From NCBI GenBank assembly GCA_044450965.1, contig JBIOJO010000002.1:21246-85245 (forward strand): a stretch of 64,000 nt of DNA. The letters run 5' to 3'. The notes below the pieces were generated by a model. It had not been told where the DNA came from, ran no database searches, and saw only the letters and a list, made by a program, of their open reading frames with translations. Each line of letters opens with the position of its first letter. Positions within the stretch are counted from its first letter, which is position 1. Source of the stretch: Elusimicrobiota bacterium (lineage in GTDB: Bacteria > Elusimicrobiota > Elusimicrobia > UBA1565 > UBA9628). Both the position numbers and the translations under genes were made by a program. Shown here one piece after another: positions 39,853 to 43,586 of the stretch.

Positions 39853-40212
39853 ATGTACCACTTCCTTCTCGTCGTTCACATCATCGCCTGCCTGGCCATG
39901 GTCCTGGTCGTCCTGCTTCAGACCGGACGCGGCGCGGGCCTTCAAATGTTCGGCGGCGGCGGAGACTCGCTGATCACCACGCCGGGCGGCTCGAGCTTCA
40001 TGAAGAAGTTCACCACCGGCCTGGCCGCGACGTTCGCCTTCACCTCGCTTTTCTTGACGCTTCTTCAGAACCGCACCGGCATGTCGAGCGTGACCTCGAA
40101 GATCGCGGATACTCCCGCGCCCCTCGAAACGCCGGCACCTCAGCCTTCGGCTTCCGCGCCCGTCGCGGCTCCGATCGCCGCTCCGGCCGCGGCTCCGGCG
40201 AAGAAGAAGTAG
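39853..40212 (+). CDS. secG: Preprotein translocase subunit SecG
   Basis: MYHFLLVVHIIACLAMVLVVLLQTGRGAGL...FGGGG, two TM helices, Ala/Pro C-tail. Confidence 0.8.
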   Translation: MYHFLLVVHIIACLAMVLVVLLQTGRGAGLQMFGGGGDSLITTPGGSSFMKKFTTGLAATFAFTSLFLTLLQNRTGMSSVTSKIADTPAPLETPAPQPSASAPVAAPIAAPAAAPAKKK

Positions 40213-40222
40213 CCGCACCGAC

Positions 40223-40306
40223 GCGCGGGTGGTGGAACTGGCAGACACGTACGCTTGAGGTGCGTATGCCCGAAAGGGTTTGGGGGTTCAAGTCCCCCCT
40301 CGCGCA
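40223..40306 (+). tRNA. tRNA-Leu (anticodon GAG), long variable arm, no encoded CCA
   Basis: Acceptor GCGCGGG/CTCGCGC (G6-U67 wobble), anticodon stem TACGC/GCGTA with loop TTGAGGT, variable arm TGCCCGAAAGGGTTT, T-arm GGGGG-TTCAAGT-CCCCC. Confidence 0.85.
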
Positions 40307-40326
40307 AAATTATTCCTCATCGAAGA

Positions 40327-40363
40327 AAGCCCCGGACCGAGACGATCGGCCCGGGGCTTTTTT
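40327..40363 (+). terminator. Rho-independent terminator after tRNA-Leu
   Basis: Stem about 11 bp (gccccgg.accga / tcggcccggggc) followed by TTTTTT. Confidence 0.6.
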
Positions 40364-40389
40364 CTTCTCCTTCGGCGACGGAACCTTCC

Positions 40390-40424
40390 TTGACGACGGG
40401 CTCCTCCGGGTCTATACTCCGAAG
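40390..40424 (+). promoter_or_regulatory. Canonical sigma70-type promoter TTGACG-17-TATACT, with the ATG about 7 nt downstream (leaderless or near-leaderless transcript)
   Basis: ttgacg(40390-40395), 17-nt spacer, tatact(40413-40418), ATG at 40425. Confidence 0.5.
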
Positions 40425-41168
40425 ATGAGCCTACTGCCCGCCCTCCTGCTCGCGCTGGCCGCCGCTCCGGTTTTCGCCGCGCCGGCCCCGCCCGCCCCGT
40501 CCGATCCGCCCTTGGTGGCGGCGGTCAAAGGCGGGGATCTGACCGGTTTGAAGGCGGCGCTCGCCGGGGGCGCCGCGGTCGGCGACAAGGACCGGTACGG
40601 GTGGACGGCCGTGATGTGGTCCATCGGTCACGGCGAAGCCGCGATGACGAAGGCCCTTCTCGACGCGGGCGCCGATCCGGCGCCGAAGGACGCGCCGAAC
40701 TACAACGCGATGATCGAGGCCGCCAAGGGCGGGCGCTTCGACGTCGTGCCCCTTCTGGCCGCGAAAGGCTTCTCCTGCGCGGCGAAGGACGAGCTCGGCA
40801 TTCCGGCTCTGTCCTACGCGGTCTCGCAGGTTTCGACGGGGACGGCCCTGGCTCTTCTCGCCTGCAAGGCGGACATCGACGCCAAGGACGCGAACGGGTT
40901 CACGCCGCTGATCCGCGCGGTCCAGGCCGGACAGGCGGCGGAAGTGAATCTTCTGATCGCGAAGGGCGCGGCGCTGAACGCGCGCGACGCGCAGGGCTAC
41001 ACCGCGCTGATGTGGGCCGCGCACAACGCCTTCGTCGACGCGGCGCGGGCGCTGCTGGCGGCGAAGGCCGATCCCCGGATCAAGGGAAAGAACGGCCAAT
41101 CCGCGCGCGACATATCCCAGAAGCGCGGCAGCGCCGGAGTCTCGGCGCTCCTGCCCGCGACGCCTTAA
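40425..41168 (+). CDS. Exported ankyrin-repeat protein (about 5 ANK repeats)
   Basis: Signal MSLLPALLLALAAAPVFAAPAP. Repeats such as GWTAVMWSIGHGEAAMTKALLDAGADP and NGFTPLIRAVQAGQAAEVNLLIAKGAALNARDAQGYTALMWAA. Confidence 0.75.
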   Translation: MSLLPALLLALAAAPVFAAPAPPAPSDPPLVAAVKGGDLTGLKAALAGGAAVGDKDRYGWTAVMWSIGHGEAAMTKALLDAGADPAPKDAPNYNAMIEAAKGGRFDVVPLLAAKGFSCAAKDELGIPALSYAVSQVSTGTALALLACKADIDAKDANGFTPLIRAVQAGQAAEVNLLIAKGAALNARDAQGYTALMWAAHNAFVDAARALLAAKADPRIKGKNGQSARDISQKRGSAGVSALLPATP

Positions 41169-42352
41169 GGTTTGCCGGGCTTGGGCGGCGTCACGCCGTA
41201 GAGACCGAGGCGTCGAGCGTGCTCGTAGGCCGCGAACGGCATCAAGGTGTGCTGGCCGCCGCGCACTTGGGTGGACGACGCGTCGAATCCGACGTGGTCC
41301 AGGAAGCGGACCTCCAGCGTCGTGGGGACCTCCGACTCGGGGTGCTCGCGCTTGATGAAGGCGACCTTCAGCGCGTGCAAGGTCGGGCTGTGGCCCATCT
41401 CGGATTCGAAATGGCGCTCGAGCTTGGGCAAGGTGTCGGGGTTGCCCTTCTTGTCCACCAGGCGGTAATGGTCGTCCCCGACCATGTACCAGGCGTCCAC
41501 GCGGCGCTCCTGATTGAGCGCGAGGATGCGGAAGATGTTCGTCTCGCCGTCCAAGGTGGTGCCGACCGCGATGGGCGAGTACTGGAAGAACGGCGCGAAG
41601 ACGTCCAGGACTTCGCGGCCCATCGGATGGCGGGTCGCGACCGGGGTCATCGTCGGCTTGCGCGGGTCGTCTCCGGCCAGAACGAAGACGATCTTGTCCA
41701 CGCCCAGTTCTCCGACGGCGCGCAGCGCGATCAGGAGATGGCCCCACTGGAACGGGTCCGCGGCGACGGGGTAGACGCCGACGCGCGCGTGGGTTTCCTC
41801 GGGGTTGGCGGGATCCGATTCGGAGAGGCGGATGGAGCGGGTCGGGTCGATCTCCTTGGCGTCGAGACGCTCCTGGATGCGCGCCAGGGCGCGGTCGGAC
41901 TCGACCGCCACGGTCTCCAGCAAGGACGCTTCGGGCTCCGTGTACTCGCGCGCGGCGGAGAGGAGCTGGACGCGGACGCGCGCGCGGACCTGGGCGGTCG
42001 GCGAGGAGGCGGGCAGCGGGAAGCGGACGTCCAGCTGGTTGAAGAGGAAGTAAAGGCGCTCGGCCGGAGGAAGTTCCTCGTTCGCGGCCGGGGCGAACGG
42101 AACGATCTCGACGGCGCGGGACGCGGAGGCGGGCTTCGGCGCGGGCGAGGGGGCGGAGGCCGCCGCGTGCGCGGAGAGCGACGGCGCGGACAAAACGGGG
42201 GAGGTCAGCGAAGGCGCCAGCGACGGGGAGGCGGTGAAGGCCGCGGGGACGCCGACGGCCGCCGGGACGGGGGAAACCTCGACGCGGCCCAGGACGGCGG
42301 CGCGGACCGGCAGCGCCAGGAGCACGGTCAGAAGCAGGTTCAATCTCTTCAT
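41165..42352 (-). CDS. NadD-like nucleotidyltransferase domain (C-terminal ~205 aa) preceded by a signal peptide and a ~170-aa Ala/Pro/Ser-rich region
   Basis: C-domain YPVAADPFQWGHL ((H/T)xGH motif), AGDDPRKP, RHPMGREVL, DASSTQVRGG (ISST-like), ...RRLGLYG, aligning along E. coli NadD. N-terminus MKRLNLLLTVLLALPVRAAV. There is no in-frame start near the domain boundary. Confidence 0.6.
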   Translation of the reverse strand: MKRLNLLLTVLLALPVRAAVLGRVEVSPVPAAVGVPAAFTASPSLAPSLTSPVLSAPSLSAHAAASAPSPAPKPASASRAVEIVPFAPAANEELPPAERLYFLFNQLDVRFPLPASSPTAQVRARVRVQLLSAAREYTEPEASLLETVAVESDRALARIQERLDAKEIDPTRSIRLSESDPANPEETHARVGVYPVAADPFQWGHLLIALRAVGELGVDKIVFVLAGDDPRKPTMTPVATRHPMGREVLDVFAPFFQYSPIAVGTTLDGETNIFRILALNQERRVDAWYMVGDDHYRLVDKKGNPDTLPKLERHFESEMGHSPTLHALKVAFIKREHPESEVPTTLEVRFLDHVGFDASSTQVRGGQHTLMPFAAYEHARRLGLYGVTPPKPGKP

Positions 42353-42458: not shown

Positions 42459-43586
42459 TCAGTAGGCCAGTTCGAAGCGGCGGCGCTTGCCGTCCGCCTT
42501 CATCATCGTGATCAGGCTTTTCAGGCTGTCGCCCTTGGCGTCGAAGATGAAGGTCCCCATCATGGCTTTGTGCGGCTGAGCGCGGATCTCCTGGATGGCG
42601 GCCTTCCGATCGCCGTGCGTCTTGCGCAGGGCCCACAGGGCGATGCGGGCCGCCTCGTAGGCGTAGTGGTCGAAGGTGCGCGGGGAAGCGTCCGGATAGC
42701 GCTTGTGATACCTGGCCAGGAAGTCCTCCGCGGACGGCAGCGCCTCCAACGGAACGCCGCTGACCGACAGGTACGCCCCGTCGGCCGCGTCGCCGGCGTA
42801 GCGGAAAAAATCGTCGCTCTTCGCGCCGTCGCCGGAGAAGAACGCGCCGGCGAAGCCCGCCGCGCGCGCCTGCTTGAGCAGGAGCCCCGCTTCCACGTAC
42901 ACGCCGCCGAAAAAGACCCCGTCGGGCTTCATGTCCGCGATCTGGCGGACCGTGGCGGAGAAATCCGCGCCGCCGCGGGGAATCGAGGTGAAGAAGGAGA
43001 CCTCCCCGCCGCGGGCTTCGAAGCCCCGCCGGAACGCCTCCGTCAAGCCGACGCCGTAGGGGGTTCCATCGTGGATCACGGCCAGCCTCTTGAGCCCGAG
43101 GCGCCGGCGGGCGTACTCGGCGTCCGAATCCCCCTGCAGGGCGTCGGAAGGAGGCAGGCGGAAAACGACGCGGGCTCCGCCCCAGTCGTCGCGCTCCTGC
43201 TGGAGGGTCAGCTCCGGGGCCGTCGCCGAGGGCGTGATCATGGGCATCGGATCGAGAGAGAGGACTCGGGCCGCCTCGATGGCGCAGCCCGACGTCAAAG
43301 GTCCGATCACGGCGAAGACCCGGGGATCGGCGGCCGCGCGGCGCGCGGCGTCGGCGGCGGCCGCGGGGACGGCGCGGTCGTCGAACGGGACCACTTCGAC
43401 CGAGACGGCGGACGCGCCGGACGCGGCGTCGTCCGCGACGGCCAGGCTCACGGCCCGCTCCATGCCCTGCCCGTCCGCGGCCAGCTCCCCGCTCATCGGA
43501 GCGATCACGGCCAGCTTGACGGGCGCCGGGGGCTTTGCGCACGCCGTCAGCGCCGCCAGGACGGACGCGAGGAGCATTCGCCGCAT
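42459..43586 (-). CDS. Periplasmic substrate-binding lipoprotein, branched-chain amino-acid (LivK/PBP type-1) family, orphan
   Basis: Lipobox LTAC. Type-1 PBP fold pattern (AVIGPLTSG..., GVFFGG...). No adjacent permease or ATPase genes. Confidence 0.7.
   Translation of the reverse strand: MRRMLLASVLAALTACAKPPAPVKLAVIAPMSGELAADGQGMERAVSLAVADDAASGASAVSVEVVPFDDRAVPAAAADAARRAAADPRVFAVIGPLTSGCAIEAARVLSLDPMPMITPSATAPELTLQQERDDWGGARVVFRLPPSDALQGDSDAEYARRRLGLKRLAVIHDGTPYGVGLTEAFRRGFEARGGEVSFFTSIPRGGADFSATVRQIADMKPDGVFFGGVYVEAGLLLKQARAAGFAGAFFSGDGAKSDDFFRYAGDAADGAYLSVSGVPLEALPSAEDFLARYHKRYPDASPRTFDHYAYEAARIALWALRKTHGDRKAAIQEIRAQPHKAMMGTFIFDAKGDSLKSLITMMKADGKRRRFELAY

Follow-up and report, generated by a model that had tools for sequence, protein, structure and literature searches.

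A Sec-signal-bearing, NadD-related protein in Elusimicrobiota belongs to an uncharacterised family that may act outside the cytoplasm

The window, by which we mean the whole 64-kb stretch of Elusimicrobiota DNA analysed here, carries on its minus strand an ORF at 41165..42352 that starts at an ATG and encodes 395 aa plus a stop, a member of an uncharacterised NadD-related family. The gene follows one for a periplasmic solute-binding lipoprotein, and the stretch separating the two shows neither a promoter-like nor a terminator-like site. GC3 is ~0.9 over the entire ORF, the indels relative to the closest relative (L003) are all multiples of three, and in the same comparison third-position differences within the module described below are 0.34 versus 0.09 and 0.08 for the other two. 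Judged from these codon patterns, the module is under purifying selection and the ORF is real.

The protein is built of five parts, all given here on the minus strand. It opens with a predicted Sec-type signal peptide at 42299..42352 (aa 1-18, MKRLNLLLTVLLALPVRA), for which a heuristic analysis of n-, h- and c-regions predicts a signal peptidase I site between V-R-A and A. A disordered Ala/Pro/Ser-rich linker follows at 42071..42298 (aa 19-94, 59% A+P+S, pLDDT 46-67), whose length and sequence differ among orthologues and which is fast-evolving yet stays in frame. Next comes a conserved three-helix subdomain at 41858..42070 (aa 95-165, helices at 96-110, 118-136 and 142-164, pLDDT >90), which is kept in every architecture of the family. 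An extended connector at 41792..41857 (aa 166-187), with a near-invariant EIDP motif at aa 167-170, leads into strand beta-1 of a NadD/NMNAT-fold nucleotidyltransferase-like domain at 41183..41791 (aa 188-390). In the AF2 model pLDDT is >90 across aa 90-390, and the three-helix subdomain is predicted to pack onto the NadD-fold domain as a single module of ~300 aa.

An earlier note made from the sequence had described ~170 aa of low-complexity, Ala/Pro/Ser-rich extension. This description fits the ~76 aa of the linker (19-94); the rest, aa 95-187, is the subdomain and connector with pLDDT >90, such that half of the extension is modelled as a conserved folded subdomain. The note also asked whether orthologues keep the extension. 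We found that the architecture of signal peptide, linker, helices and domain is retained by >100 orthologues (about 140 homologues of 380-440 aa, nearly all from Elusimicrobiota) and, because they keep all of it, the extension is not an over-called part of a nadD ORF. As the note had remarked, start codons are absent near the domain boundary: codons 149-217 contain no in-frame ATG, GTG or TTG, and the nearest are a TTG at 144 and a GTG at 148, which fall inside a conserved helix.

The motifs quoted in the note were all located, DPFQWGHL at aa 199-206, RHPMGRE at 241-247, DASSTQVR at 357-364 and RLGLYG at 381-386. QWGH (41738..41749, aa 202-205) is a variant of the nucleotide-binding (H/T)xGH motif; its W203 and H205 do not vary in the family. 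Active NMNATs and PPATs naturally carry either H or T at the first position of HxGH; here 86 of the 108 members with a signal have Q (80%), and 74 of the 80 without one have H (92%). ASSTQVR (41261..41281, aa 358-364) corresponds to the ISSTxxR motif of NadD and PPAT, with S359, S360 and R364 invariant, and GLYG (41195..41206, aa 383-386) is the C-terminal GLY signature common to NadD. VGDDHY (41465..41482, aa 291-296) aligns to the NadD GxD motif and includes the invariant, family-specific H295 and Y296. GDDPRKP (41654..41674, aa 227-233) aligns to the PPH(K/R) loop of NadD, and R231 stands where NadD has a ring-stacking His (E. coli H45; residue role from PMC8035330). Altogether W203, H205, S359, S360, R364 and ~25 further positions are invariant in 105 sequences with identity down to 42%, a pattern that suggests an active site. 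On these alignments (Q/H)W(G/A)H and SSTxVR, the motifs that bind the nucleotide phosphate, appear to be retained in the module.

The likeness of the C-terminal part to NaMN adenylyltransferase, which the note had read as an alignment along the enzyme, is above chance by HMM, hhalign and Foldseek; it is a remote likeness only. Against B. subtilis NadD, hhalign gives a probability of 94.8% (E 5e-8) over 176 columns from beta-1 through the C-terminal GLY, and the top 50 Foldseek matches are all NadD with target TM-scores of 0.61-0.78. The nearest fold is NadD/NMNAT and not that of the TagD/CCT cytidylyltransferases. In the HMM scoring called for in the note, the protein reaches 28.4 bits (E 1e-6) with the NCBIfam NadD model NF000840, whose cut-off is 150, and 16.9 bits with TIGR00482 (NadD), whose cut-off is 112.45; the best NadD-model score among six other family members is 54.8 bits. 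Pfam PF01467 (CTP_transf_like) scores 16.6 bits, under its gathering score of 21. Since only a few relatives pass that threshold (P0219 with 28.8 bits, and P0061, P0075 and P0119 as precomputed matches) and the window protein lies below it, superfamily membership rests on the fold and not on the PF01467 score. In the pyridine pocket of E. coli NadD, H45 and W117 stack on the ring and Y118 hydrogen-bonds the carboxylate or amide (PMC8035330). By the B. subtilis NadD hhalign, on which the correspondence depends, H45, W117, Y118 and Y84 (E. coli numbering) align to R231, L311, E312 and N272. Scores fall far under every NadD model and the pocket residues are replaced, and therefore the protein is almost certainly not the NadD that serves NAD synthesis; in this the note's reading is supported. 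With the NadD proteins of E. coli and B. subtilis as tblastn queries, no canonical nadD turned up in the 64-kb window or in the 57 loci searched.

Evidence for export comes from the N-terminus and from amino acid usage. Where the note had seen a hydrophobic signal-like segment, MKRLNLLLTVLLALPVRA, followed by AV, has the three regions of a signal peptide: by our own heuristic these are an n-region M-K-R, an h-region LNLLLTVLLAL and then P-V-R-A before the next A. This agrees with what is expected of a Sec signal with a signal peptidase I site: a positive n-region, 7-15 hydrophobic residues in the h-region, and small residues at both -3 and -1. Signals across the family were called by a simple heuristic rule rather than by SignalP. 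Under this rule a signal-like N-terminus is present in 104 of 118 extended members versus 4 of 124 short ones. Of the 109 modules that carry a signal, 108 contain no Cys, and Cys stands at 1.06 per 100 aa in the signal-less relatives, with 0.71% Cys in the coding background of the window; common ancestry within one clade could account for part of this absence. Tat export was considered and set aside, given the short, Leu-rich h-regions and an unconserved twin-arginine motif. A lipoprotein was likewise set aside, the window protein having no Cys at all and so no lipobox. The conserved signal peptides and strict Cys avoidance support the export half of the note's exported or membrane-tethered enzyme, and the geometry of the PssA fusions described below points to the cytoplasmic face, at least in that clade.

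The same module is found in several other settings. It occurs as ~315-aa signal-less proteins within phoBR-pst loci: three such homologues lie in phoBR-pstSCAB-phoU loci with metallophosphoesterases adjoining (L047, L050 and L054), and L055 holds another in a locus of this kind. The link to Pho loci is confined to the signal-less clade and is not seen in Elusimicrobiota. An Elusimicrobiota member with a signal has a PhoE-type histidine phosphatase as its fusion partner, and another member has an alkaline-phosphatase-superfamily domain. Five species encode the module in one protein with a complete PssA-type CDP-alcohol phosphatidyltransferase; helix geometry places the module on the PssA active-site side, which the positive-inside rule assigns to the cytoplasm, and the same signal peptide is kept in these fusions. 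In an MFS-like fusion, a K/R cluster stands between the last transmembrane helix and the module, which looks cytoplasmic. Giant Omnitrophota proteins (>3,000-7,000 aa) contain 1-7 copies each, of which one also looks cytoplasmic; these modules are Cys-poor, with none in 8 of 13. Mainly in the giants, the module is joined to cofactor-dependent domains such as a methyltransferase, a UDPGP domain and a GNAT-like stretch read from the sequence, and NCBI names some module-bearing proteins radical SAM and glycogen/starch synthase. The PssA and MFS-like fusions, the one giant-protein copy and the cofactor-dependent partners all speak against export. Pfam searches on 16 multidomain members left the flanking regions mostly without a known domain, and an ADP-ribosyltransferase in the 170-aa C-terminal extension of P0034 was unsupported by Pfam and PDB.

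Neighbouring genes give few clues to function. When every ORF lying up to 7 kb from the gene was clustered across 53 loci, no conserved neighbourhood emerged for the Elusimicrobiota genes. Operon partners were rejected as a functional clue, as we observed only subclade synteny (SBP, ankyrin, secG and pgk in six close relatives) and generic OmpR-type regulators; adjacency to the solute-binding gene is restricted to close relatives. An SLT lytic transglycosylase gene is a neighbour in two loci only, L001 and L004. One homologue (L006) lies within a fatty-acid/lipid gene cluster, adjoining an acyltransferase-ACPS gene, and another (L005) has a PF01066 gene 2.7 kb away. PADLOC returned no hits, and a part in anti-phage defence was dropped.

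We favour, with moderate confidence, the reading that the window protein is a Sec-exported member of an uncharacterised family descended from NadD/NMNAT-type nucleotidyltransferases. Signal peptidase I would cleave at about A18/A19, leaving the mature protein in the periplasm. Because we know of no NTP donor available there, the module would most likely bind a pre-formed nucleoside-diphosphate-linked compound or a dinucleotide, and NadD-type chemistry might run towards breakdown or exchange. Neither hydrolysis nor phosphorolysis is, to our knowledge, established for the superfamily outside pyrophosphorolysis. One possibility is that the protein cleaves or exchanges the pyrophosphate bond of NDP-linked compounds outside the cytoplasm for phosphate or nucleotide scavenging. 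The homologues in Pho loci and the fusions to a histidine phosphatase and an alkaline-phosphatase-superfamily domain are leads in this direction, and a role in scavenging or phosphate economy rather than biosynthesis is itself a lead and not a result. Nothing was found that points to the AMPylation or surface-polymer modification suggested in the note. More tentatively, and with a likelihood we would put on the low side, a NadD-fold family may have moved outside the cytoplasm in Elusimicrobiota to perform nucleotide or dinucleotide chemistry without cytoplasmic NTP, the same module having been recruited into PssA fusions and Omnitrophota giants.

The other readings differ mainly in where the module sits and whether it is an enzyme. 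The hydrophobic segment and linker could be only a tether for an enzyme on the cytoplasmic face, where NTP would activate a phospho-alcohol or lipid head-group precursor that a CDP-alcohol phosphatidyltransferase then consumes, a Kennedy-like two-step. The PssA fusions, with the module on the DxxDGxxAR active-site side and positively charged cytoplasmic loops, speak for this arrangement, as do the K/R cluster of the MFS-like fusion, the lipid-cluster setting of L006, the PF01066 gene near L005 and the strict conservation of the NTP-binding motifs. However, the h-region has only 11-14 residues, with K/R to its N-side and an AxA site, as in a cleaved Sec signal and not an N-out anchor, and the PssA fusions themselves retain that signal peptide. 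The Cys missing from signal-bearing modules is common in signal-less ones, and the nearest fold is not that of the phospho-alcohol cytidylyltransferases TagD and CCT. We therefore judge this tethered arrangement unlikely.

An exported protein that binds nucleotides or dinucleotides without catalysis, as a pseudoenzyme or as a binding or sensing component, would account for the Gln that replaces the first His of HxGH in most signal-bearing members, for the apparent want of a periplasmic NTP donor and for the position of the window gene directly after a solute-binding lipoprotein gene. That first position varies in active enzymes too, however, the solute-binding adjacency does not extend past close relatives, and the set of invariant residues resembles an active site, which leaves loss of catalysis with a small share of the probability. 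Export could also serve a secreted effector that acts in another cell where ATP exists, like the enzyme modules of giant Omnitrophota proteins proposed for predation. The module does recur, Cys-poor, in those giants, most of whose domains are placed outside the cell (10.1101/2023.11.21.568195). Yet no conserved secretion-system, immunity or toxin-delivery genes lie beside the Elusimicrobiota genes, PADLOC is silent, the gene is present in a single copy per genome under ordinary purifying selection, and the neighbouring domains in the giants are metabolic, cofactor-dependent enzymes; we consider an effector very improbable. Least credible of all, and already contradicted, is an ordinary cytoplasmic NadD with its N-terminal 186 aa over-called. 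Several members are labelled 'nicotinic acid mononucleotide adenylyltransferase' in automatic JGI annotation and the window has no other nadD, but codons 149-217 offer no start, >100 orthologues keep the extension with its confidently folded subdomain, the score of 28 bits falls far short of the 150 required, and other residues occupy the pyridine pocket (PMC8035330).

The JGI naming may wrongly credit NadD in metabolic reconstructions of Elusimicrobiota, Omnitrophota and Syntrophorhabdales. An export signal on an NTP-dependent fold is odd, as ATP is not known to be supplied outside the cytoplasm, and it raises the question of substrate and nucleotide source. If true, extracytoplasmic use would be new biochemistry for a very well-studied fold, and we know of no earlier member of the HxGH nucleotidyltransferase superfamily outside the cytoplasm; a literature search returned nothing on exported NadD-like proteins or on the module in giant proteins. 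The module is one of few recurring, confidently foldable units in the largely unannotated Omnitrophota giants, so that an activity solved in the small 395-aa protein would help to annotate them, and the rules of membrane-protein topology find a natural test in the PssA fusions.

Among known systems the closest are the bacterial NadDs (TIGR00482, PRK00071; PDB 1kam, 1k4k and 8aih), which share the motif order xDPxxxGH, P-x-(H/R)-K loop, GxD, SSTxxR and C-terminal GLY. The window protein is 12-21% identical to the solved NadD structures and differs from them in having QWGH for HxGH, R, L and E in place of the ring-stacking H45 and W117 and the hydrogen-bonding Y118, a 9-residue insertion after GDDHY, and an added N-terminal three-helix subdomain, signal peptide and linker. 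Eukaryotic and archaeal NMNATs (PDB 5z9r, 9iw1 and 1f9a) showed no significant sequence similarity to it, lack the invariant residues of its family and differ in localisation and domain architecture. CoaD/PPAT is clearly further off than NadD, being ~160 aa long without the C-terminal subdomain and GLY motif. Enzymes of the IPCT-DIPPS type have a GlmU-like IPCT domain and no signal peptide, and the window protein itself is unfused; like the PssA-fusion clade, they combine a nucleotidyltransferase and a CDP-alcohol phosphotransferase in one polypeptide.

The minus-strand ORF spanning 41165-42352 opens with ATG, encodes 395 aa, and is a conserved protein-coding gene. All of the nucleotidyltransferase motifs listed in an earlier note were found: DPFQWGHL (aa 199-206), RHPMGRE (241-247), DASSTQVR (357-364) and RLGLYG (381-386). 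The note's lack of a start codon at the domain boundary also holds, with no in-frame ATG, GTG or TTG from codon 149 to codon 217; the closest alternative starts, a TTG at codon 144 and a GTG at codon 148, both fall within a conserved helix. GC3 is 0.90-0.93 in each segment of the ORF, the N-terminus included. Compared with the closest relative, at locus L003 (76% identity), 4 of 4 indels are multiples of three, and differences in the module, the ~300 aa shared by all architectures of the family, are 0.34 at the third codon position vs 0.09 at the first and 0.08 at the second; the linker diverges fast at all three positions while keeping the reading frame. The GC3, the in-frame indels and the codon-position differences show that the ORF is coding over its full length.

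An AlphaFold2 model (mean pLDDT 87; >90 over aa 90-390) and 105 aligned homologues divide the protein into five parts. A predicted signal peptide (aa 1-18; MKR-LNLLLTVLLAL-PVRA|A) is followed by a disordered linker (aa 19-94), variable in length and sequence among homologues, a three-helix subdomain (aa 95-165), an extended connector (aa 166-187) with a near-invariant EIDP motif (aa 167-170) at its start, and a Rossmann-like nucleotidyltransferase domain (aa 188-390). The earlier note's ~170 aa of low complexity shrinks to the linker: only aa 19-94 are Ala/Pro/Ser-rich (76 aa, 59% A+P+S), and residues 95-187 are not of low complexity. Such Ala/Pro-rich linkers seem common in this high-GC genome, since the SecG gene of the window (39853-40212, plus strand) also encodes a C-terminal tail, about 45 aa long and rich in Ala and Pro, ending APAPLETPAPQPSASAPVAAPIAAPAAAPAKKK. 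Across the 105 sequences, down to 42% identity, 29 positions are invariant, including D199, P200, W203, H205, K232, R241, H242, G269, E270, G292, H295, Y296, D306, T307, S359, S360, R364 and Y385.

Standard models score the protein poorly: Pfam CTP_transf_like gives 16.6 bits (gathering score 21), TIGR00482 gives 16.9 bits (cut-off 112), and the best NCBIfam model of NadD, the NaMN adenylyltransferase of NAD synthesis, gives 28.4 bits (E 1e-6; cut-off 150). No tested family member reached a NadD cut-off, the top score being 54.8 bits. As a single sequence the target matched PDB entries only at E above 0.1; the family profile reached NadD structures at E about 1e-4. With hhalign, B. subtilis NadD aligned over 176 columns (probability 94.8%, E 5e-8), from beta-1 through the C-terminal GLY motif common to both, and bacterial NadD made up 50 of the 50 top Foldseek matches (target TM-scores 0.61-0.78). 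These profile and structure comparisons settle that the target is remote kin of NadD; it follows that its domain has a diverged fold of the NadD type and not that of a TagD/CCT-type cytidylyltransferase.

A word-indexed search returned 140 homologues, nearly all of them 380-440 aa long and from Elusimicrobiota MAGs, and a scan of species-representative genomes gave 47 loci, the majority in Elusimicrobiota and a few in Omnitrophota, Syntrophorhabdales, Thermodesulfobacteriota and 'delta proteobacterium' MAGs. When 1.84 billion cluster representatives were searched exhaustively with a profile, 154 clusters matched at E <= 1e-30 and 327 at E <= 1e-10. Nearly all of the 140 homologues are called 'hypothetical' or carry JGI's label 'nicotinic acid mononucleotide adenylyltransferase' (database entries P0022, P0023, P0069, P0078, P0119, P0137, P0261 and others), and the JGI label is likely to give rise to false NadD calls when the metabolism of these phyla is reconstructed.

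Four architectures were observed: (a) in Elusimicrobiota, a protein of about 400 aa made up of signal peptide, linker and module; (b) the signal-less module only (about 315 aa); (c) one to seven module copies inside giant proteins (3,000 to over 7,600 aa) from Omnitrophota; and (d) fusions. Fusion partners include a complete PssA-type CDP-alcohol phosphatidyltransferase, a PhoE-type histidine phosphatase (signal-bearing P0123, L058:8001-10178, Elusimicrobiota), an arylsulfatase/alkaline-phosphatase-superfamily 'sulfatase' domain, a PIG-L deacetylase, a methyltransferase and an MFS-like 12-TM membrane domain. Members fused to domains other than PssA include P0123, P0219, P0171, P0125 and P0034; in P0034 (L001:7211-8905) the module is joined to a 170-aa C-terminal domain without an assignable family. 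Giant ORFs with the module (L043:2-20828, L053:2-21761, L046:2611-14279, L051:1-9557; also P0121, P0130 and P0133), mostly from Omnitrophota, extend beyond the locus ends (more than 3,000-7,600 aa). Two giant module proteins are called 'radical SAM protein' and 'glycogen/starch synthase' by NCBI, and the two module copies of L053 are near-identical tandem repeats.

A simple heuristic for signal peptides, which asks for a small-x-small site as well as a hydrophobic 10-mer close to the N-terminus, was satisfied by 104 of 118 extended members (complete, under 600 aa, motif 150 aa or more from the N-terminus) vs 4 of 124 short members. The h-region of the target spans 11 residues, like most N-termini listed, with K/R before it and an AxA-type site after it; h-regions in the family reach about 18 residues (13-18 in the PssA fusions). 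This predicted N-terminus fits a cleaved Sec signal and not a membrane anchor. Of 109 signal-bearing modules, 108 lack cysteine altogether; in modules without a signal the mean is 1.06 Cys per 100 aa and only 11 of 69 are Cys-free, and the background in confident coding regions of the window is 0.71%. Judged from sequence, the Sec-type signal of the target is conserved and cysteine is avoided, and we infer that the protein is located in the periplasm. The main alternative, in which the module works at the cytoplasmic face of the inner membrane, is based on the PssA fusions of five Elusimicrobiota species (L025:9443-11635, L026:9392-11635, L027:5810-8206, L032:1284-3485, L002:1705-3465). Their PssA part is complete, has 8 TM helices and is joined in frame, with about 35 residues between the module and the N-terminal end of TM1. 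The hairpin made by TM1 and TM2 carries the DxxDGxxAR motif at the end of TM2, and the module therefore shares a side with the PssA active site. Loop K/R counts are +3, +4, +6, +4 and +2 on the module side and 0, +1, 0 and 0 on the opposite side, so that by helix geometry and the positive-inside rule the module side should be the cytoplasm. However, the same proteins retain a textbook signal peptide and their modules are Cys-free, and the predicted cytoplasmic placement contradicts that signal.

In the window, the gene directly upstream of the target encodes a solute-binding lipoprotein (Peripla_BP_6; 42459-43586, minus strand; begins with MRRMLLASVLAALTAC) and lies without adjoining ABC permease genes. 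The target follows it by 106 bp, and no terminator-like site was found between the two. They may be co-transcribed, because the sole sigma-70-like promoter site of the region (43620-43592) precedes the Peripla_BP_6 gene. A convergent ankyrin-repeat gene (40260-41168, plus strand), whose product has its own predicted signal peptide, shares overlapping stop codons with the target at 41165-41168, so that a terminator would not fit between the genes; L003 shows the same overlap. This arrangement of the target and its two neighbours is kept in six close relatives only, and no conserved partner gene was found across 53 loci. Signal-less ~315-aa homologues in Syntrophorhabdales-like MAGs lie in Pho clusters (L047:5226-14219, L050:2773-13398, L054:1-9580, L055:2023-8070). 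At the first three loci the homologue adjoins a phoBR-pstSCAB-phoU cluster, lying divergent from its pstS or phoB, and a metallophosphoesterase gene is in the vicinity; at L055 it is on the same strand, flanked by two pstS paralogues and downstream of phoB-phoR. PhoBR-like genes lie about 3-4 kb from the homologue at a further locus, L056. This placement suggests that the signal-less homologues in Pho clusters are members of the Pho regulon.

Fusions to phosphatases, together with the position of signal-less relatives inside Pho loci, give a speculative hint that the protein takes part in phosphate or nucleotide economy. Because the periplasm is not known to offer an NTP donor, we speculate that the substrates of the enzyme might be pre-formed NDP-linked compounds or dinucleotides, with the reaction running towards breakdown or exchange. 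AMPylation and surface-polymer modification, both raised in the earlier note, gained no specific support in our analysis. The fold is a well-known one. What appear undescribed are the distinct status of the family, the three-helix addition, the export signal and the use of the repeated module in giant proteins; literature searches on these subjects returned nothing.

In E. coli NadD, H45 and W117 stack on the pyridine ring, Y118 hydrogen bonds to the carboxylate or amide, and a Y84V/Y118D double mutant moves preference away from NaMN (PMC8035330). Mapped via the B. subtilis alignment, H45, W117, Y118 and Y84 correspond to R231, L311, E312 and N272 in the target. These four residues are invariant or nearly so in a 25-sequence alignment (A1), as are L311, E312 and N272, but not R231, in a 13-sequence trimmed alignment (A3). 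By these alignments the NadD substrate pocket is not retained, the predicted pyridine pocket being altered, and the putative NTP-phosphate motifs are intact. The target further differs from NadD in having Gln at position 1 of the HxGH motif and in carrying a 9-residue insertion after a family-specific GDDHY motif.
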